From assembly GCA_963813815.1 (NCBI GenBank), contig CAWFAD010000016.1, positions 32,001 to 96,000 of the forward strand: 64,000 bases of DNA, read 5' to 3'. The DNA is from an uncultured bacterium. Lineage in GTDB: Bacteria; Krumholzibacteriota; Krumholzibacteriia; Krumholzibacteriales; Krumholzibacteriaceae. The translations under genes and the position numbers were made by a program. Position 1 is the first letter of the stretch. Every line of letters starts with the position of its first letter. The notes beneath the pieces are model-generated. The model was not told where the DNA came from and made no database searches. It worked only from the letters and a program-made list of their open reading frames with translations. Positions 1 through 11,167 of the stretch are shown here, one piece after another.

Positions 1-670
1 TCTTGAGGTCCTTATAGGTCCTTATCACGTTCGGCATCTCCTGCCGGCAGGGGGCGCACCAGGCGGCCCAGAAATCGATCAGCACCACCTTGCCGCGGTA
101 CTTCGCGAGATCGATCTTCTTCCCCTCGTGCGAGGTGCCGACGATGCCCGCGGCGGGCGATCCGATCTTGATCCGCCGCAGCGCGTCGATGCGGGCGAGC
201 TCGCTCCGCGCCCCGTCGGAGATGCGCTGGTCGATGGAGAGCCCCGCGTCCACGAGCTCGCGGAAGAGCTTTTCCGCCTCGTCGAAGCGCTCGACGGCGA
301 GGTAGCTCGAGGCGAGGACCAGCTTGGCCGCAGCCGCCATGGACGCGTTCTTCACCGCGGGGGAGGCCATGAACGCCTCGGTGTGCTCGATCGCCTTGGC
401 CGTCGATCCCGTGGCCGAGTAGACCGTTCCGAGCGCGAAGTGCGCTTCGCCCGCCTCCGGGGCCTTCGGGTATTTCCTGATGAAATCCCCGAGCGAGCGC
501 TCGAGGAGCATGAAGTACTCGTTCATGGCCATCGTGCCCTGCTTCGCCCGCAGCTCGTCCGAGAGGCGCTTGTACTCGCGCGCCGCCTCGGTCTCGGCCG
601 ACGCGCGGTCCGCCGCGGCGAGGGCGGCGAGAGCGATGACGCAGGCGGCGATGAAGGTCCTCATTTTCAT
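1..670 (-). CDS. Exported TlpA/ResA-family thiol:disulfide oxidoreductase with N-terminal TPR-like helical region (3' end runs off the window)
   Basis: Not in the ORF track. Manual translation from ATG 670 gives a signal peptide (MKMRTFIAACVIALAALAAA) and later KIDLAKYRGKVVLIDFWAAWCAPCRQEMPNV, the TlpA WCxxC motif. Confidence 0.9.
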   Translation of the reverse strand, partial: MKMRTFIAACVIALAALAAADRASAETEAAREYKRLSDELRAKQGTMAMNEYFMLLERSLGDFIRKYPKAPEAGEAHFALGTVYSATGSTAKAIEHTEAFMASPAVKNASMAAAAKLVLASSYLAVERFDEAEKLFRELVDAGLSIDQRISDGARSELARIDALRRIKIGSPAAGIVGTSHEGKKIDLAKYRGKVVLIDFWAAWCAPCRQEMPNVIRTYKDLK

Positions 671-754: not shown

Positions 755-1840
755 CTACTTGCCGGTCTTCAGTTGCCCGCCGCTCCCCTCCCCCACGCGG
801 ACGCTCCCGATGAGGTCGAGGTTCAGGATCTTGTACCTCGGATGGTTCGTGTAGATCTTCACGGAGCCCATGTACTGCCCGATCCGGCTCGTGGGCCGCA
901 CCCAGACGGTTCCGCGGAACGACTTGCCGGGCACGAGCTCCTGTATTTTCACGGTGATGTCGTCGCGGCTCGGCTCGATCTTGAGGATCTCGAGCGAATC
1001 GCCGCGCGCGAGGATGACGTTGAACTGCCGGTCGAAGGTCTTCGTCGCGCCGGGCGGTATCACCATCTCGCTGAAATAGATGCGGTTCGGCTGGAGCTCC
1101 ACGTCGGGCGCGATCGTGATCGAGAGCTGCATTTTCTTCTCCGGGAGCTTCGCGAAATCAGTCGCGAGCACGATCCCGGCGACGAAGCTCTCCGGCGCCA
1201 TCTCTTTCTTGCGCCACACCTTGAGACGATACTTCTTCCCCTTCTCGATCGTCTCGAGCTTGAGCCCGATCCTGTCCTCGTACCCCTTCCGCTTCGACTC
1301 GTCGTCCCAACGGACGCTCGTCAAGTGCACGGCGTTCGGCAGAAGGTTCGTGATGATGCTCTCCAGCTTGAACTCTTCGTCGACGAATCCCGCCCACCTG
1401 AGCTCCCGCGAGAACTCGAACACCTTCTTGATGTTCATCTGAATATTGAGCCCGAAGGTCGCGTTCTGAGGATCGTTCGTCTTGACGGTGTAATGCTTCT
1501 CCGAAAAGCCGGGGTAGAGCTTCCGTCCATCCACCTTTACGTTTATCCGGCCCTCCTTCCCGGGAGGGATGACCTTGTCGTAGTCGGCCACTGAGCAGCC
1601 TCAACCAGGTTTGACGCTCAGGATCTGGAGCTCAGCCGTTCCCCCGTTCTTTACGATGAAGGTGTGGGTGTAATCCTGCCCTTCGAGCACATCCCCGAGA
1701 TTGATCGACTTCTCGGCGATTATCACGATAGGGGTCTTCTCGGGCGCCTTGCCCTTCGGGTTCGCCTGGGCGAACGAGGCGGCCGAGAAAGCTGCGACAA
1801 AGACGAAAACGAGAGCCAACGCAATGATTCTGTTGCGCAT
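755..1840 (-). CDS. Exported DUF1573-like Ig-fold protein with an in-frame UGA at codon 80 (1601-1603), probable selenoprotein of about 361 aa
   Basis: ORFs 1601..1891 and 755..1591 are in the same frame, separated by TGA GGC TGC TCA. Read-through gives NGGTAELQILSVKPG-U-GCSVADYDKVIPPGKEGRI, matching the DUF1573 CGC...IPPG motif. Signal peptide and a GGAGG RBS precede ATG 1840. Confidence 0.8.
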
Positions 1841-2004
1841 AGCCTGACTGCCCTCCAACCGGTTTGGTTCCTGAAGGGGCGACGTATCCATACATTATAT
1901 GCAATCGCGGCCCGCGGATTCCACTGAAAAATTCCCGGCGCCTTCGCGCGGGGGCCCTCGCGCGTCCCCGCCAGCTCGCCGGCCGGGCAGCGGGGGGGGC
2001 TCGC

Positions 2005-2033
2005 TTGACAGGGGGGGTCCCGGGCGTTATGTT
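2005..2033 (+). promoter_or_regulatory. sigma70-type promoter upstream of gdhA
   Basis: TTGACA-N17-TATGTT. Confidence 0.6.
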
Positions 2034-2073
2034 CGCTGGGACGAGAAATCTCGTTCAAGAAAGGATGGGTTTC

Positions 2074-3360
2074 ATGGCCGACAAATCGTTCAACGCCTTC
2101 GAAATGGCCCAAGCCCAGTTCGACCGGGTCGCGGGGCTCCTCGACCTCGACGAGGCGACGCGGCAGCTCCTCAGAGTCAACCTCCGCGAATATCACGTGA
2201 GCATTCCCGTCCGCATGGACGACGGGACCCACCGGGTGTTCCGCGGATTCCGCGTGCAGCACAACGACGCGCGCGGGCCGGCGAAGGGCGGCATCCGCTT
2301 CCACCCGATGGAGACGATCGACACGGTTCGCGCGCTCGCCATGTGGATGACGTGGAAGTGCGCGGTCGTCGACATCCCTCTCGGGGGCGGAAAGGGCGGG
2401 GTCGTGTGCGATCCGCACCACCTGAGCCTGCGCGAGCAGGAGCAGATCTGCCGCGGCTGGGTGAGACAGCTCTCGAGAAACGTGGGGCCCGTCTCGGACG
2501 TGCCGGCCCCCGACGTCATGACGAGCGCCCAGCACATGCTCTGGATGCTCGACGAGTTCGAGACAATCCGCGGGGAGAGGCTCCCCGGTTTCATCACCGG
2601 CAAGCCGGTCGGCATGGGCGGCTCGCTCGGGCGCACCGAGGCCACCGGGTACGGCGTGGTCTTCACGATCCGCGAGGCCCTCAAGGAGCTCAATATCCCG
2701 CCGAGCGAAACGACGGCGAGCGTTCAGGGCTTCGGCAACGTCGCCCAGTACGCCATCGATCTCTACCAGCAGATCTGGGGCAAGGTCGTCTGCGTCTCCT
2801 GCTGGGATCAGACCGACCAGACCTCCTACTCGTTCCGCAAGCGCAACGGCATCGATCTCGCCGAGCTTCGCGGGATCACGGACCGCTTCGGCGGCATCGA
2901 CAAGGCCAAAGCGAAGGAGCTCGGGTACGAGGTCCTTCCGGGCGAGGCGTGGCTCGAGCAGGACGTCGACATCCTCATCCCGGCGGCGCTCGAGAACCAG
3001 ATCACCGCGGCGAACGTGAAGAAGATCGCCGATCGCGTCAAGATCATCGCCGAGGGCGCGAACGGCCCGACGACCCCCGAGGCGGACGCGGCGATCGCCA
3101 AGCGCAAGATTTTCATGATCCCCGATTTCCTCGCGAACGCGGGCGGCGTGACCTGCAGCTACTTCGAGCAGGTCCAGAGCAACATGAACTACTTCTGGGA
3201 AAAGGACGAGGTGCTCGGCAAGCTCGACGTCAAGATGACCTCGGCCTTCGCCGCCGTGAGCGCGCTCGCGAAGAAGCGCAACCTCTACATGCGCGACGCC
3301 GCGTACGTCATCGCCGTCGGACGCGTCGCGCAGGCCTGCAAGGACCGCGGGTGGGTGTAG
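2074..3360 (+). CDS. gdhA: Glu/Leu/Phe/Val dehydrogenase (glutamate dehydrogenase)
   Basis: RGPAKGGIRFHP, LGGGKGG, VPAPDV, GRTEATGYG, QGFGNVA, IAEGANGP and PDFLANAGGV motifs. RBS AAAGGA precedes ATG 2074. Confidence 0.93.
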   Translation: MADKSFNAFEMAQAQFDRVAGLLDLDEATRQLLRVNLREYHVSIPVRMDDGTHRVFRGFRVQHNDARGPAKGGIRFHPMETIDTVRALAMWMTWKCAVVDIPLGGGKGGVVCDPHHLSLREQEQICRGWVRQLSRNVGPVSDVPAPDVMTSAQHMLWMLDEFETIRGERLPGFITGKPVGMGGSLGRTEATGYGVVFTIREALKELNIPPSETTASVQGFGNVAQYAIDLYQQIWGKVVCVSCWDQTDQTSYSFRKRNGIDLAELRGITDRFGGIDKAKAKELGYEVLPGEAWLEQDVDILIPAALENQITAANVKKIADRVKIIAEGANGPTTPEADAAIAKRKIFMIPDFLANAGGVTCSYFEQVQSNMNYFWEKDEVLGKLDVKMTSAFAAVSALAKKRNLYMRDAAYVIAVGRVAQACKDRGWV

Positions 3361-3431
3361 CCCTCCCCGAGGCACGGACGCCGCACGCGCCGCAGCGCGC
3401 GGCGTCCGCCGCGGGAGACAGGTGAGGCCCG

Positions 3432-5189
3432 ATGCGAAGACGTTCGTACAACCCGCACCGCGGCACGCTCACGCGCTTCGCCCGGGAGTTCTACTCGCCG
3501 GCGGAGCGGTTCACGTACATCGGCTCGGGCGAGCTCGGCGGCAAAGCTCACGGGCTCGCCCGCGTCAAAGGCATCCTCGACTCGAAGTTCCGGGGGGCGT
3601 TCGCCCCCGACGTCGAGGTCGCGATCCCTTCCCTCACCGTCATCACGACGGACATGTTCGATCTCTTCATGAAGGAGAACGACCTCTACGAGACGGCGTA
3701 CTCGGGCGACCGCGACGACATCGTCGCGCACGAGTTTCAGCGCGCCTCGCTTCCCGTGCAGCTCGTCGGAGATCTCCGCGCGCTCGTGGAGCAGGTCCGC
3801 TCCCCGCTCGCGATCCGCTCGTCGAGCCTTCTCGAGGACGCCATGTTCGAGCCGTTCGCGAGCGTCTACGCGACCAAGATGGTGCCGAACAACCAGCCGG
3901 ACGCCGACGGCCGTTTCCGGCGCCTCGCCGAGGCGATCAAGTTCGTCTACGCGTCGACCTTTTTCCGCTCGGCGCGCAACTACATGAAGGCGACGCATCA
4001 CGCGACGATCGACGAGAAGATGGCGGTGATCATACAGGAGGTCGTCGGCACGCGCTTCGGCGACCGGTTCTACCCGCACGTGTCGGGAGTGCTGCGCTCG
4101 TACAACTTTTATCCGGTCGGATACGCGAAGCCCGAGGAGGGCGTGGTCGAGCTCGCGCTCGGCCTCGGCCGGACGATCGTCGACGAGGGCGTCTCGTGGT
4201 CGTTCTCGCCCGCGTACCCGGCGATCGGGCCGCCCTTCAAGTCGATGCGGGACATGCTCAAGCACACGCAGACGCGGCTCTGGGCGGTCAACATGGGCAA
4301 GCCCCCCGAGTACGATCCGATCAACGAGACCGAGTACCTCGTGCGCTGCGGCCTCGAGGAGGCGGAGTACGACGGAACCATCCGGCATCTCGCCTCGACG
4401 TACATTCCCGCCGACGACGGCGTCGAGATGGGGATCGAGGCGCGCGGGCCGCGGATCGTCGATTTCGCGCCGATCCTCAAGGGCGGCGTCCTGCCGCTCG
4501 CCGACCTCCTCGGCCGCCTCAAGGCGACGTGCGAGGAGATGCTCGGCGCCATGGTCGAGGTGGAGTTCGCCATGAAGCTCGGCCGCGAGCTCGCCGCCCC
4601 CGCTTCCTTCGGCTTTCTGCAGGTGCGCCCGATGGTCGTCTCGACGGAGGCGGTCGACGTCGGCGAGGCGGAGCTCTCGGGGGAACGCGTGCTTCTCTCG
4701 TCCGAGAACGTGCTCGGAAACGGCGTCCTCGAGACGATCCGCGACGTCGTCTACGTCGACCCCGAGCGGTTCGACGTCCTGAAATCGCGCGACATCGCCT
4801 CCGAGATCGAGCGCCTGAACGGCCCGCTCGTCGAGGCGCGGCGCCCCTATCTCCTCATCGGCTTCGGCCGATGGGGGACGACCGACCCGCTCGGCGGGAT
4901 CCCGGTCGACTTCGGACAAATCTCGGGCGCCGCGGCGATCGTGGAGGCGTCGCTGCCGAACCTGCCCTTCACGCTCAGCCAGGGCTCGCATTTTTTCCAT
5001 AACGTGACGAGTTTCAAGATCCTCTACTTTTCGATCCGCCATCACGACGGACGCGGCATCGACTGGGAGTGGCTGCGGCGGCAGGAGCGGCGGCAGGACG
5101 GCGCCTTCGCGAGCCGCGTCGAGCTCGCCTCGCCGCTCGTCGTGAAGGTGGACGGCAGATGCGGCCGGGGAGTGATACTGCATGCCTGA
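3432..5189 (+). CDS. PEP/pyruvate-binding (PPDK_N, ATP-grasp) domain protein lacking the phospho-His and pyruvate domains
   Basis: LGGKAHGL, PLAIRSSSLLED, EKMAVIIQEVVG, LGLG, LQVRP, GRWG and SQGSHFFHN motifs. Confidence 0.85.
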   Translation: MRRRSYNPHRGTLTRFAREFYSPAERFTYIGSGELGGKAHGLARVKGILDSKFRGAFAPDVEVAIPSLTVITTDMFDLFMKENDLYETAYSGDRDDIVAHEFQRASLPVQLVGDLRALVEQVRSPLAIRSSSLLEDAMFEPFASVYATKMVPNNQPDADGRFRRLAEAIKFVYASTFFRSARNYMKATHHATIDEKMAVIIQEVVGTRFGDRFYPHVSGVLRSYNFYPVGYAKPEEGVVELALGLGRTIVDEGVSWSFSPAYPAIGPPFKSMRDMLKHTQTRLWAVNMGKPPEYDPINETEYLVRCGLEEAEYDGTIRHLASTYIPADDGVEMGIEARGPRIVDFAPILKGGVLPLADLLGRLKATCEEMLGAMVEVEFAMKLGRELAAPASFGFLQVRPMVVSTEAVDVGEAELSGERVLLSSENVLGNGVLETIRDVVYVDPERFDVLKSRDIASEIERLNGPLVEARRPYLLIGFGRWGTTDPLGGIPVDFGQISGAAAIVEASLPNLPFTLSQGSHFFHNVTSFKILYFSIRHHDGRGIDWEWLRRQERRQDGAFASRVELASPLVVKVDGRCGRGVILHA

Positions 5190-8100
5190 TCAGCAGCGAA
5201 AGCTGGACGATATCATCCGGTTCTCGCGCGAGCGCGAGAAAGAGCTCGAGTGCCTCTACCGGATCGAGGAGATCCTCAAGAGGCCCGGCATCGACATGAA
5301 CTCGGCGATCAGGGCGATCGTCGACGCGGTGCCGTCGGGATGGCAGTACCCCGAGGTCTGCCGCGCGAGGATCGACATCGGCACCGAAACGTACGCGCCC
5401 CGGGGCTTCAAGGAAACGCCTTGGGCCCAGCGGGCGGACGTCTTCGTGCAGGGGAAAAAGGCGGGCGAGATCGGCGTCTACTACGCGAAGGAGATGCCTC
5501 CCGCCGACGACGGGCCCTTCCTCACGCACGAAGCGAGGCTCCTGCGGGCCATCGCCGATCGTCTCGGGATCTTCATATTTCACCGGCAGGTCGAGCAGGC
5601 CGTCAAGGACCTTCCCGCGCTGCGGCCGGACGAGGGCGGGGGCGACTGGCAGGTCGTTCTCGACATCCTGCGGCAGACCGACCGCAACCTCCTCGTCGCC
5701 ATGAGCGAGCGAATGCTCAATCTCCTCTGCTGGAGCGGCGTCGAGGAAGCGGAGCGGCTGCGCGACGGCGCCGGCGCGCCCGAGCCGGCCGTCAATGACG
5801 AGGCCTCCGGGCTCGTGAACCGGCCCGGCCGGCGCACCGCCATCGAGATCACCGACGAGCGGAGCCGCGAGATCTTCCGCATCGCAGCGGAGCATTACAC
5901 CGACGATCGGCTCCTCGCCTACATACGGAAATGGCTCCTCGACGACAAGCTCAAGTTTCTCGCCCGCGTGGCGAGCCGCAACCTCCCCCTCGCCGAGGTG
6001 ATCGACGCGCTCCGGCAGTACCGCGACATCCGGCTCGACGGCGTGGGGCTGTCGGACGCTTCGAAGACGGGCGTCGTCGTCTCGCTCATCCGCCGGTTCC
6101 TCTCGAGCCAGCTCAACTACATACGAATCGCGAAGAGCTACGTCGACGTGAAGGATTTCTTCGAGTTTCTCGACCGCACGATCTACTCGACGGAGAGCAG
6201 CGGCAAGCTCGGCGGAAAATGCGCGGGTCTCTTTCTCGCGCGGCAGATCATCGAGAAATCCCCCGAGTCGAACGACCTGCTGCGGGCGATCAAGACGCCC
6301 CGGAGCTGGTACATCACCTCCGACATCCTGCTCCGCTTCCTCAGCTACAACAACATGGACGAGGTGGGCGAGCAGAAATACAAGGACATCAACCAGATCC
6401 GCCTCGAATACCCGCACGTGATACAGGCTTTCAAGAACGCGCGCTTCCCGTCCGAGATCGTTCAGGCGCTCTCGGTCGTGCTCGACGAGTTCGAGGACCG
6501 GCCGCTCATCATCCGCAGCTCGAGCCTCCTCGAGGACAGCCTCGGCTACTCGTTCTCGGGCAAGTACCGCAGCCTCTTCCTCGCGAATCAGGGCACGAAG
6601 CAGGAGCGGCTCGAGGCCCTCATGGACGCGATCGCGGAGGTCTACGCCTCCGTCTTCGGGCCCGACCCGATCGAATACCGGGCGGAGCGTGGGCTCCTCG
6701 ACATCAGCGAGGAGATGGGGGTCATGATCCAGGAGGTCGTCGGCACGCGCGTCGGGAACTACTTCTTTCCGGCGCTCGCCGGGGTCGCCTTCTCCAGAAA
6801 CGAGTTCCGGTGGTCGCCCCGCATCAAGCGCGAGGACGGGCTCATCCGCATGGTTCCCGGCCTCGGCACGCGGGCGGTGGACCGCACGAGCGACGACTAT
6901 CCCGTCCTCCTCGCGCCGGGCCAGCCGGGGCTGAGGGTCAACGTGGCGGTCGAGGAGATCGTGTACTACTCGCCGCGAAAGCTCGACGTCATCAACCTCG
7001 AGACGAACACCTTCGAGACGATGGACGCGCGCGAGCTGCTGCGCCGCCACGGCGGAGAGATTCCCATGCTCGAGAAGCTCGTCTCGGTGTACGACGGGCA
7101 ACACCTTCGCCGGCCGCTCGCCATGAGCGTCGACACCGAGAGAGACTCGCTGTCGTTCACCTTCGAGGGCCTCATGACGGACGGCGTCTTCGTGCCGCAG
7201 ATGAACGGCCTCCTCAAGCTGCTCGAGTCGAAGCTCGGCACGCCGGTCGACATCGAGTTCGCGCACGACGGCCGGGATTTCTACCTCCTTCAGTGCCGGC
7301 CCCAGAGCTTCGGCGAGGACGCCGCCCCCGCCCCGATACCGAAGGACGTGCCGCCGGACTCCGTCGTCTTTTCCGCCCGCCGCCACGTCTCGAACGGCCG
7401 CGTGCCGGACATCACGCACATCGTGTACGTCGATCCGGAGCGGTACGGGGAGCTCGCCGGAGCGGAGCGACCTCGTCGCCGTCGGGCGCGCCGTCGGACG
7501 CCTCAACAAGCTCCTTCCGAAGCGGCAGTTCATTCTCATGGGCCCCGGCCGGTGGGGAAGCAGGGGCGACATCAAGCTCGGCGTCAGCATCACCTACTCC
7601 GACATCAACCGAACGGCCGTGCTCATCGAGATCGCGCGCCGCTCGGGGGGATACACGCCGGATCTCTCGTTCGGAACGCACTTCTTCCAGGATCTCGTCG
7701 AGGGAGAGATCCGCTACCTGCCCCTCTACCCCGACGACGAGGGGATCGTCTTCAACGACCGCTTTCTCAGCGGATCGCCCAACATCCTCGCCGATCTGCT
7801 CCCCGAGTACGCGCACCTCGCCGGCGCGGTGAAGCTCATCGACGTGCCGCGCGCCACGGGCGGAAAGGTGCTGAGGGTTCTCATGAACGCCGAGCTCAAC
7901 GAGGCGATCGGCATCCTCGCGGAGCCCCAGACGGGGACCCGGCTCGCCCCGGCGGCGCCGGAGGAGGGGGCGCGGCCGGCGGAGCAGTTCTGGGTGTGGC
8001 GCCTCCACATGGCCGAGCGCCTCGCGAGCGAGCTCGACGCCGGACGCTTCGGGGTCGTCGCCCTCTACGTGTTCGGCAGCACGAAGAACGCGACCGCCGG

Positions 8101-8359
8101 GCTCAAGAGCGACATCGATCTCCTCGTCCACTTCCGCGGCACGCCGGAGCAGCGCGCCGAGCTCGGCCTGTGGCTCGAGGGTTGGAGCCTCGCGCTCGAC
8201 GAGATGAACTACCAGAAGACGGGGTACCGCACGGGGGGCCTGCTCGACGCTCACGTCGTCACCGACGAGGACATCGCCAACAAGACGAGCTACGCGATCA
8301 AGATCGGCGCCGTCACCGACGCCGCGAGGGCGCTTCCGATGAAAAAGAAGAGCGAGTGA
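5182..8359 (+). CDS. Sensor-like N-terminus, PEP/pyruvate-binding ATP-grasp domain and C-terminal nucleotidyltransferase domain; +1 frameshift near 7459
   Basis: KLGGKCAGL, IIRSSSLLED, EEMGVMIQEVVG, LLQCRP. Removing one G in GCCGGAGCGG restores ELAERSDLVAVGRAVGRLNKLLPKRQFILMGPGRWGSRGD and joins ORF 7538..8359, which carries the NTase motif YVFGSTKNATAGLKSDIDLLV. Confidence 0.82.
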
Positions 8360-9212: not shown

Positions 9213-9401
9213 TTCGCCTTCGTCCGTTCGCTCGCCGCCTCCGAAGCCCGGAACCGCAGGGGCCATAATACCATATTTTCCTTTAATTTCGGCCCCGCAT
9301 GCTATAGATTATCTTCCGTCGGCGAGCCGTCGCTCATAATAATCGCAACAGCAGTTGTACTATAAGGTATGGAGGAAGGGCGTTCGCCCGCCGTGACAAA
9401 A

Positions 9402-10581
9402 ATGAGTGCCGCACGAAATAAAGAAATATACATGGACCACATAGCCGCCGGGCCGGTGCGCCCGGAGGCCGCGCGAGCCATGTCGGAGCTCCTGCGGGAC
9501 GGGTTCGGGAACCCCTTGAGCGTGCATTCCCGCGGACAGACCGCCGCGGAGGCGCTCGCCCGGGCGCGGGAGCAGGTGGCCTCCCTCGTCGGCGCCGAGC
9601 CCTGGGACGTGATATTCACCGCGACGGGGTCGGAGGCCAACAACCTCGCCCTCAAGGGTATCGCCCCGGCGCGAAAAAAGAAATCGAACCGGATCGTGGT
9701 CTCCGCGGTCGAGCACCACTCGATTTTGAACCCGGCGCGCACGCTCGCCAAGGAAGGGTACGAGCTCAGCGTCCTCCCCGTCGACGGGCACGGGCTCGTT
9801 TCGGCCGCGAGGCTCCGCGAGGAGCTCGCGAAAGGCGCCGCGCTCGTCTCCATCATGCACGCCAACACCGAGATCGGAACGATCGAGCCCATCGAGGAGC
9901 TCGCCGCCGCGTGCCGCGAGTTCGACGTTCCGCTTCACTCGGACGGATGGGGAACGGCGGGCGTCGTCCCGGTCGACGTGAAGCGGCTCGGCGTGGCCGC
10001 CTACTCGATCGCCGCGCAGAACTTCGGCGGCCCGCCGGGGGCGGCCGCGCTCATTCTCCCGAAAGGCACGCCGGCGCGCGCCCTCATCGAGGGCGGGGTG
10101 CAGGAGCGGGGGCTCCGCGCCGGACAGGAAAACCTCCCCGCCATCGCGGGGATGGGCGTCGCCGCGGAGCTCGCGCTCGCGGAGCCTCGAGGAAACGGCC
10201 GCGCGCACGCGCGCCGTCCGCGACGCCCTGCTCGCGCGGCTGCCGTCCGAGATCGCCGACGTCATCGTGACGGGGCATCCGGAGCGCCGGCTCCCCAACC
10301 ACGCGAGCTTCTGCGTGAAGTACATCGAGGGAGAGGGAATGCTCCTCCTCCTCGACGGCGCCGGGATCATGGCGGCGAGCGGCTCGGCCTGCACCTCGAA
10401 AGCGCTCAAGGGAAGCTACGTACTCGAGGCGATCGGCGTCGACACCGCCGTCGCGCAGGGCTCGATCGTTTTCACGATGGGGCCGGAGAGCGAGCTCGCG
10501 GACGTCGACGCGATCGTCGCAACGATGAAGCCCGCCGTCGCGCGGCTGCGCGAGATGTCACCGTTATACCGGAGGAAGTAA
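9402..10581 (+). CDS. iscS: IscS/NifS-family cysteine desulfurase homologue lacking the PLP lysine; +1 frameshift near 10185
   Basis: GNPLSVH, IFTATGSEANN, SAVEHHS, MHANTEIG, GGVQERGLRAG. An extra C at 10185-10186 shifts the frame; ORF 10267..10581 carries RLPNH and SGSACTS. Confidence 0.85.
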
Positions 10582-10585
10582 GGTC

Positions 10586-11167
10586 ATGGCTCTCTACAGC
10601 GACAAGGTGATGGATCATTTCATGAATCCCCGCAACGTCGGCGAGATCCCCGGCGCGGACGGCGTCGGCGAGGTCGGCAATCCCGTCTGCGGCGACATGA
10701 TGACCTTTTACATCAAGGTGAAGGGTAACCGCCTCGCCGACATCAAGTTCAAGACCTTCGGTTGCGGCGCGGCGATCGCCGTCTCGAGCATGGTGAGCGA
10801 GATGGCGACGGGGAAAACGATCGAGGAGGCGCTCGAGATCACCAACGAGTCGGTCGCCGAGGAGCTCGGCGGGCTTCCGAAGAACAAGATGCACTGCTCC
10901 AACCTCGGCGCCGACGCGCTCCACGCGGCGATCGAGAACTACCGCGCGCGCAAGCGCGGCGAGCCGGCGGCGTCCGCGGCCGCCGGGCACGGGCACGATC
11001 ACGAGGAGTGCACGTGCCCCTTCTGCGACGCGGAGATCGACGGGGAGGACCCGATCTGCAGGACCTGCGGCGTGGAGTTTCTCGAGTGCCCCGCCTGCGG
11101 CAAGCTCGCCTCGAACAAGGACACGGCCTGCCCCCACTGCGGCGCGGGGCTCGGGAAGAAGGAATAG
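10586..11167 (+). CDS. iscU: IscU/NifU-N Fe-S scaffold with C-terminal double zinc ribbon
   Basis: YSDKVMDHFMNPRNVG, NPVCGD, FGCGAAIA, KMHCSNL. The tail has CPFC, CRTC, CPAC and CPHC. Confidence 0.92.
   Translation: MALYSDKVMDHFMNPRNVGEIPGADGVGEVGNPVCGDMMTFYIKVKGNRLADIKFKTFGCGAAIAVSSMVSEMATGKTIEEALEITNESVAEELGGLPKNKMHCSNLGADALHAAIENYRARKRGEPAASAAAGHGHDHEECTCPFCDAEIDGEDPICRTCGVEFLECPACGKLASNKDTACPHCGAGLGKKE

Follow-up and report, generated by a model that had tools for sequence, protein, structure and literature searches.

A probable DUF1573 selenoprotein gene of Candidatus Krumholzibacteriota with a predicted two-helix recoding signal and a conserved TlpA-like neighbour

Introduction

OS_HP2 (PF07610; NF041425) is a computationally predicted selenoprotein family, in which a DUF1573 domain carries selenocysteine (Sec) at the first Cys of a CGC motif and for which the entries cited here give no function. 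It was reported from Olavius symbionts and has stood on selenoprotein lists since 2007 (PMC1976440), the GOS study links it to pfam07610 with a UxC motif (PMC2398784) and two reviews list a 'DUF1573 domain-containing protein, UGC' (PMC9312934, PMC13188914). Going by the legend to Figure 5 of the 2007 paper, the SECIS of OS_HP2 is absent from those drawn (PMC1976440). In the bSECIS model, the distance from the UGA to the apical loop is 16-37 nt, the loop has 3-9 nt with a G in its first two positions, and the stem has 4-16 bp (PMC13188914). Reviews and databases note bacterial selenoprotein genes that lack a canonical SECIS, amounting to 12.6% of BSepDB entries, and the relevant passages do not describe an alternative class (PMC13326102).

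Redox-active Ig folds have been described in the periplasm, namely CsgC and DsbD's N-terminal domain (nDsbD). The CxC motif of CsgC has a potential of -139 mV, CxC motifs lie in the isomerase range, and it is a thioredoxin domain that recharges nDsbD (PMC3173608). In addition, a CGC motif is needed for the activity of MauE (bioRxiv 10.64898/2026.03.05.709764).

The gene described here lies in a 64,000-nucleotide stretch of DNA from an uncultured member of the Krumholzibacteriaceae (hereafter, the window), and resembles OS_HP2 in its DUF1573 domain and in the position of Sec. A sequence-only reading of the window had called it a hidden selenoprotein; the call holds but the implied novelty does not, since DUF1573/OS_HP2 with UGC is already catalogued as a selenoprotein family. 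Its own feature with respect to OS_HP2 is its occurrence in Ca. Krumholzibacteriota. What the present analysis adds is a predicted, atypical two-helix SECIS and a conserved partnership with TlpA. Literature searches found no account of the two-helix signal, of a DUF1573-TlpA operon or fusions, or of tandem Sec/Cys paralogues; paper supplements or BSepDB may already hold these genes.

The gene and its product

The genome is 2.53 Mb in size and 91% complete, and its relatives are Ca. Krumholzibacteriota. The features of the locus are given in Table 1.

Table 1. Features of the DUF1573 locus, in window coordinates; signal positions (+) are counted from the base after the UGA
Feature	Position	Strand	Details
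Exported TPR + TlpA-like thioredoxin (WCAPC), 307 aa, 5' part	1..670	-	Probable start 670; runs to G000:C16:31747
DUF1573/OS_HP2-type selenoprotein gene, 361 residues	755..1840	-	Signal peptide, then three Ig-like (ASH/PapD-like) domains in tandem
Domains 2 and 3, residues 141-349	794..1420	-	Ig-like, without cysteine; structure model
Domain 1, residues 38-140	1421..1729	-	DUF1573, carries the motif; PapD/ASH-like fold; Pfam and model
Helix B (predicted)	1551..1568	-	CCCUCC (+33..+38), loop CGGGAA (+39..+44), GGAGGG (+45..+50)
Helix A (predicted)	1569..1591	-	GUGGCC (+10..+15, 1591-1586) with GGUCAU (+27..+32, 1574-1569)
U80-G81-C82 motif	1595..1603	-	Sec codon is the TGA at 1603-1601
Predicted signal peptide, residues 1-24	1769..1840	-	Hydropathy and model helix 2-24; putative cleavage site
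Putative ribosome-binding site	1852..1856	-	GGAGG, 11 nt ahead of the ATG; assigned from sequence

The product has the make-up of an exported protein, as had been proposed, with a basic N-terminus, a hydrophobic core and a predicted A-x-A cleavage site; hydropathy of the whole protein gave no hydrophobic segment besides this one. U80 and C82 are its sole Sec/Cys residues. Pfam DUF1573 (PF07610) covers residues 41-133, across the TGA, at 71.5 bits (cut-off 26.1; E 6e-20), and at E up to 0.1 the only other Pfam match is PF22544. With C scored for U, the NCBIfam model NF041425, 'OS_HP2 family (seleno)protein', aligns over model positions 3-97 of 98 and scores 99.2 bits (cut-off 100); all 37 Cys paralogues (37/37) match it, with a best E of 1.3e-31.

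The AlphaFold2 model (mean pLDDT 87) consists of three beta-sandwiches in tandem, with residues 80-82 in a loop between strands 71-78 and 83-87. Domain 1 superposes on the PapD-like domain of HYDIN (2e6j) with a VIA-align Z of 10.3 and an rmsd of 2.0 over 99 residues, and for domains 2 and 3 the best bacterial match is 2qsv of P. gingivalis, with a Z of 12.0 and an rmsd of 13.1 across 190 residues. The domain fold is that of the ASH/PapD-like group (HYDIN, CEP192, the Ig domain of VesB/VesC, pilus chaperones and 2qsv; Z 9-12, PF22544), a likeness that by itself shows no function. A PDB sequence search with the protein returned no match. A promoter scan found none on the strand of the gene, and RNA run X17 yielded one contig over 1236-1430, which stops short of the TGA and is no proof of transcription.

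Decoding of the UGA codon

The in-frame TGA is codon 80 of 361 and falls, as first noticed from the sequence, at the first Cys of the DUF1573 CGC motif (VKPG-U-GCSV), with 281 residues beyond it. Gene callers have indeed split the gene: its database entry (P0002) is a 278-aa fragment, and of 120 listed homologues, counting the window's own entry, 87 begin at the Val84 codon just past the UGC. All of the full-length proteins in that list (27/27) carry CGC. The selenoprotein call is in itself ordinary, yet it corrects many split database entries.

Homologous DNA was compared at this column. Loci L022-L123 gave 141 sites, of which 27 duplicates were removed; L024 had no match covering the codon and was left out. 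The remaining 114 distinct sites comprise 73 TGA and 41 Cys codons (37 TGC, 4 TGT), and neither TAA nor TAG, under a search pattern that allowed Cys or stop only. G-C-Q variants (in genomes G020, G033 and G136) were missed by this pattern and do match one that combines the TGA with the downstream signal described below. Among 201 genomes from the phylum, 65 match the latter; they fall in five of the nine families, and its reversed control has 0 matches. Outside the phylum, no homologue DNA was found in viral contigs, and five matches in plasmids belong to Bacteroidota. An assembly error is ruled out by the recurrence of the TGA at 73 distinct sites and by a contig from run X1, possibly the source sample, which spans 1566-1900 and has a single difference, at 1846.

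The machinery for Sec is encoded in the genome, with selA (506 bits), selB (353), selD (367) and tRNA-Sec (71) all above their cut-offs and, as had been stated, all outside the window. The anticodon of the tRNA-Sec is UCA and its extra arm is long, and selD carries an in-frame TGA of its own. Across the phylum, selA was matched in 64 of the 65 pattern-positive genomes (the exception, G151, is 75% complete); since it is near universal there (193/201), this co-occurrence is consistent with Sec and does not discriminate. Genome-wide screens for TGA read-through gave the DUF1573 gene and MvhA as the only convincing cases and missed SelD, so that their count of the selenoproteome is a lower bound.

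The codons around the TGA are, as had been remarked, unusually A/T-ending: CCT, GGT, TCA and AAA make up 3.0%, 4.2%, 1.2% and 15.5% of their synonyms in the genome, and seven of codons 61-80 (TGA included) end in A or T, against 11.7% genome-wide. The rare CCT and GGT codons stand directly before the UGA, at 1604-1609 on the minus strand. CCT two codons upstream of the site is found in 51 of 73 TGA copies and in 0 of 41 Cys copies; no pairing partner for this conserved codon was found, and the rare codons may possibly slow the ribosome before Sec insertion.

Taken together, the machinery, the TGA/Cys column and an RNA signal specific to TGA copies point to UGA80 being read as selenocysteine by tRNA-Sec and SelB, to which we assign a probability of roughly 95% on sequence evidence.

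A predicted recoding signal of two abutting hairpins

The sequence-only reading had drawn two hairpins after the UGA. The distal one, at 1568-1551, exists with strong comparative support (helix B), and the contrast between TGA copies, in which it is conserved, and Cys copies, in which it has decayed, marks this G-loop hairpin as the likely SECIS. The proximal one, GGCUGC-UCA-GUGGCC at 1600-1586, can be drawn, but one of its pairs is broken in 22 of 71 TGA sequences with no compensation, and across homologues its strand 1591-1586 pairs better with 1574-1569, forming helix A. The two foldings share that strand and have similar energies (-17.2 kcal/mol with helix A vs -17.5 with the proximal hairpin). 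The proximal hairpin, which would sit largely within the decoding ribosome, is probably wrong and helix A is preferred.

Pairing in the two helices over 71 distinct TGA sequences amounts to 98.5% of 852 cells, with four pairs changed on both sides; no shuffle out of 500 attains this value, and slid controls give 34-58%. In the 41 Cys sequences, only 64.4% is paired and 463 of 500 shuffles are as high, the sequences within both sets being kin, which makes the shuffle counts overstate. For helix A alone the values are 97.9% in TGA and 71.5% in Cys sequences, and for helix B 99.1% and 57.3%. RNAalifold recovers both helices unprompted. The 11-nt loop of helix A is variable in sequence, and two of its pairs have compensatory changes, in one sequence each. 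Helix B abuts helix A directly, and 12 sequences have a compensatory change in it from C-G to U-A.

The synonymous codons at the pairing and loop positions differ accordingly between the two kinds of copy (TGA vs Cys): the loop Gly is GGG/GGT in 73/73 vs 15/41, Pro is CCT in 57/60 vs 2/11 (genome, 3%), Val is GTG in 66/69 vs 18/33 at one position, and at another GTC in 64/64 vs 15/21. Where Leu is CTT, all 12 TGA sequences (12/12) have GAA opposite, with some five joint changes of this pair on the tree. Counts on the tree of 66 TGA copies are 5 and 6 changes per side and only 6 joint for pair +35/+48, and 3, 3 and 3 changes for pair +36/+47; lower GC in some lineages could have aided the swap from C-G to U-A. 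Support for helix B is thus good, because synonymous sites are fixed at the pairing base and compensatory changes occur in TGA copies; the case for helix A comes mainly from fixed synonymous sites and from compensatory events in two single sequences. It is comparison that carries the RNA case, since the single-sequence folding energy is no better than that of shuffles (z -0.49 to -0.09). A search of Rfam over 1400-2100 at E up to 5 returned one snoRNA model, which scores far under its gathering threshold and was set aside as a chance match.

Like the bSECIS consensus, helix B is a hairpin within the coding region 3' of the UGA, with a 6-bp stem and a 6-nt loop in which positions 2 and 3 are both G and the next base is G/U (position 2 is G in 73/73). 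It is unlike the consensus in its spacing, as 38 nt separate the UGA from the loop in every one of the 73 TGA sequences without gaps, outside the range of 16-37, and in having a second conserved helix upstream in place of one extended stem. Spacings in the same lineage are canonical in both SelD (20 nt, 25 sequences) and MvhA (22 nt, 8 distinct sequences of 12), suggesting that the long spacing belongs to the DUF1573 gene and not to the SelB of the organism. Helix B is probably the SelB-binding hairpin, a prediction drawn from the loop motif that it shares with the MvhA hairpin of the lineage (CGGGUA).

In the proposed mechanism, helix B with its (C/U)GG(G/U)NN loop would serve as the SelB site. 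Helix A starts 10 nt past the UGA, about where mRNA would enter the ribosome; by folding away 23 nt of spacer it may allow a hairpin 32 nt downstream still to work, and it could compact the spacer and stack on helix B. The element is defined to the base pair, has natural Cys paralogues as controls and is open to test with reporters.

A TlpA-like neighbour and a proposed function of the protein

The gene for an exported TPR protein with a TlpA-like thioredoxin domain adjoins the DUF1573 gene downstream on the same strand. In 41 of the 43 informative loci, that is, those with at least 1,750 bases past the last site, the next gene downstream matches TlpA, and this arrangement spans five families of the phylum. 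The exceptions are L087 and L121, and the TlpA gene of L118 appears frameshifted; the remaining neighbours of DUF1573 differ among families. In addition, fusions of DUF1573 with AhpC-TSA/Redoxin domains, in operon order, are present in seven of 26 distant homologues, which were selected out of 147 for their size and CxxC pattern, so that 7/26 is no frequency. These fusions came from a HMMER library search; a word-index search among longer proteins had found none in 39 candidates. Thioredoxin cysteines are lost in two of the seven fusions (P0179 has CxxS, P0240 none), from which it follows that the pairing of DUF1573 and TlpA need not be redox. The genome also encodes a complete DsbD, with N-terminal, TM and thioredoxin domains. 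A complex prediction for a Cys paralogue (from L026) and its TlpA scored 0.00 and gave no answer. Operon and fusions offer a concrete, testable partner for DUF1573, a large family without a function.

The earlier reading had left the UxC site as redox or metal, and gene context tilts the choice towards a thiol-redox partnership with TlpA. The reading that we favour, at about even odds and from gene context and analogy, is that of an envelope redox adaptor or isomerase, an Ig fold with UxC that is recharged by TlpA; it draws on the TlpA operon and fusions, the genomic DsbD and the known redox-active Ig folds. The exported protein would present a Sec-Gly-Cys redox pair on the loop of its first Ig-like domain, the TPR-TlpA protein, itself exported and supplied by DsbD, would reduce the Se-S bond, and the DUF1573 protein would pass electrons to envelope clients, or reshuffle their disulfides, while its ASH/PapD-like domains held them. 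Its mode of working would resemble that of nDsbD and CsgC, outside both families. All three would have in common a periplasmic Ig-like sandwich and a CxC or cysteine pair borne on a loop, and in DsbD, too, it is a thioredoxin-fold domain that recharges the Ig fold; the present protein differs in having three ASH/PapD-like domains, Sec, and a TlpA that is separate or fused. Pfam DsbD_N and CsgC gave no sequence match at E up to 0.1, and neither CsgC nor nDsbD was among the best 50 structural rows, the query being the whole three-domain model. To our knowledge, ASH/PapD-like domains have no known redox role.

With recoding taken as given, the U-G-C site might instead bind a soft metal (Cu+, Hg2+, Ag+), making the protein an envelope metallochaperone or scavenger whose site TlpA keeps reduced. 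TlpA is known to keep the copper chaperone Sco reduced, and the TlpA linkage fits this explanation equally well; the structure model has an exposed two-ligand site on a loop. We nevertheless consider it unlikely: no copper or metal-resistance gene was recognised in the recurrent neighbour clusters of 78 loci (clusters judged by sequence, and only a part of them by Pfam as well), and the invariant or near-invariant columns hold no other conserved Cys, His or Met ligands.

Less likely still is a structural role, in which tandem ASH domains would build an envelope rod or adhesin, UxC/CxC would provide a cross-link or a switch, and TPR-TlpA would be a dedicated folding or maturation factor. The top fold matches of the model are indeed tandem ASH scaffolds, adhesins and S-layer proteins, the gene occurs in arrays of one to three copies, some distant homologues bear SH3 or FimA-like domains and two fusions lack an intact CxxC. 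But Sec insertion is slow and selenium-limited, which makes a catalyst more plausible than a structural protein needed in abundance, the genome holds the Sec copy only, and a shared Ig fold proves no function.

Doubts about recoding itself carry far less weight. Decoding of the UGA as Cys or Trp, by a suppressor tRNA or a variant code, would suit the Cys found at 41 of 114 sites and is very improbable, as the sole UCA-anticodon tRNA at default stringency is the tRNA-Sec, ordinary genes of the genome terminate with TGA, and only the TGA copies have a fixed G loop of SECIS type. A genuine stop, leaving two short genes or a pseudogene, has in its favour the annotated 278-aa ORF beginning at GTG 1591 and is the least credible of all, given that the stop would interrupt DUF1573 mid-domain, is always TGA and in frame at the 73 distinct sites, recurs with its signal in 65/201 genomes against 0 in reversed controls, is followed by rare synonymous codons fixed in TGA copies alone, and would leave a downstream ORF without a signal peptide.

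The redox-adaptor reading can be taken one step further, tentatively, to a distinct SECIS class, in which an upstream spacer helix is stacked on the SelB hairpin and would let it act from outside the accepted range, together with an envelope redox pathway, so far undescribed, from DsbD through TPR-TlpA to a Sec-containing ASH/PapD chaperone-isomerase, for which repeatedly evolved Cys copies would be selenium-independent back-ups. If true, the DsbD/TPR-TlpA pathway would supply a function for the large DUF1573 family, for which a cut-off of E up to 0.001 gives 8,225 representatives of clusters, other ASH-type domains included.

Evolution and copy number

Many relatives have two or three tandem copies of the DUF1573 gene, whereas the window's genome has one. 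Arrays of two or three copies that mix TGA and Cys forms in varying order occur at L026, L028, L075, L097, L109 and L111. On a midpoint-rooted FastTree tree of 104 of the 114 sites, parsimony places Sec at the root and counts 10 Sec/Cys changes, the direction of change being tentative under this rooting. Helices A and B are decayed on the Cys branches. This suggests, from the sequences, repeated duplication followed by replacement of Sec by Cys. A few genomes of family f7 with selA have only Cys copies in the fetched loci (L115, L117). In family f4, a distant DUF1573-like match (L114, G005:C32:151398-151682) has one in-frame TGA outside the motif pattern.

Other observations in the window and genome

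The plus strand of the window at 1864-8359 holds a glutamate dehydrogenase gene and then PPDK_N-domain genes, the second and long one of which seems to be interrupted by a frameshift around 7500. Most relatives of the genus have nifS-nifU-nadA directly upstream of the DUF1573 array, so that the glutamate dehydrogenase/PPDK_N cassette looks inserted here. Further on, a cysteine desulfurase gene at 9369-10610 (plus strand) seems to contain a frameshift, as the Pfam match extends over residues 20-268 and the C-terminal portion is in another frame (ORF 10267-10581).

Downstream of the TlpA gene, G000:C16:20000-31665 (minus strand) is a long co-oriented cluster, the first two genes of which come after TlpA in many loci of the family to which the window's genome belongs. 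Its genes presumably encode Fe-S and NAD-binding subunits of sulfhydrogenase type, a protein of the molybdopterin family and a module resembling a membrane-bound hydrogenase/antiporter.

Elsewhere in the genome, an 85-nt 'tRNA-Cys' call at G000:C13:13414-13498 has several mismatched stem pairs and is probably a false positive. The MvhA-like [NiFe] hydrogenase large subunit (L125, G000:C5:41443-42906, minus strand), whose group was assigned by gene context alone, belongs to an hdr/mvh cluster. In Group 3 hydrogenases, a CxxU at the N-terminus is regarded as an exception (PMC13582414); in L125 the TGA falls in the N-terminal motif RICGV-U-P (CxxU), with a canonical SECIS, and 20 of the 38 matches listed in a search of the MvhA family have one TGA.
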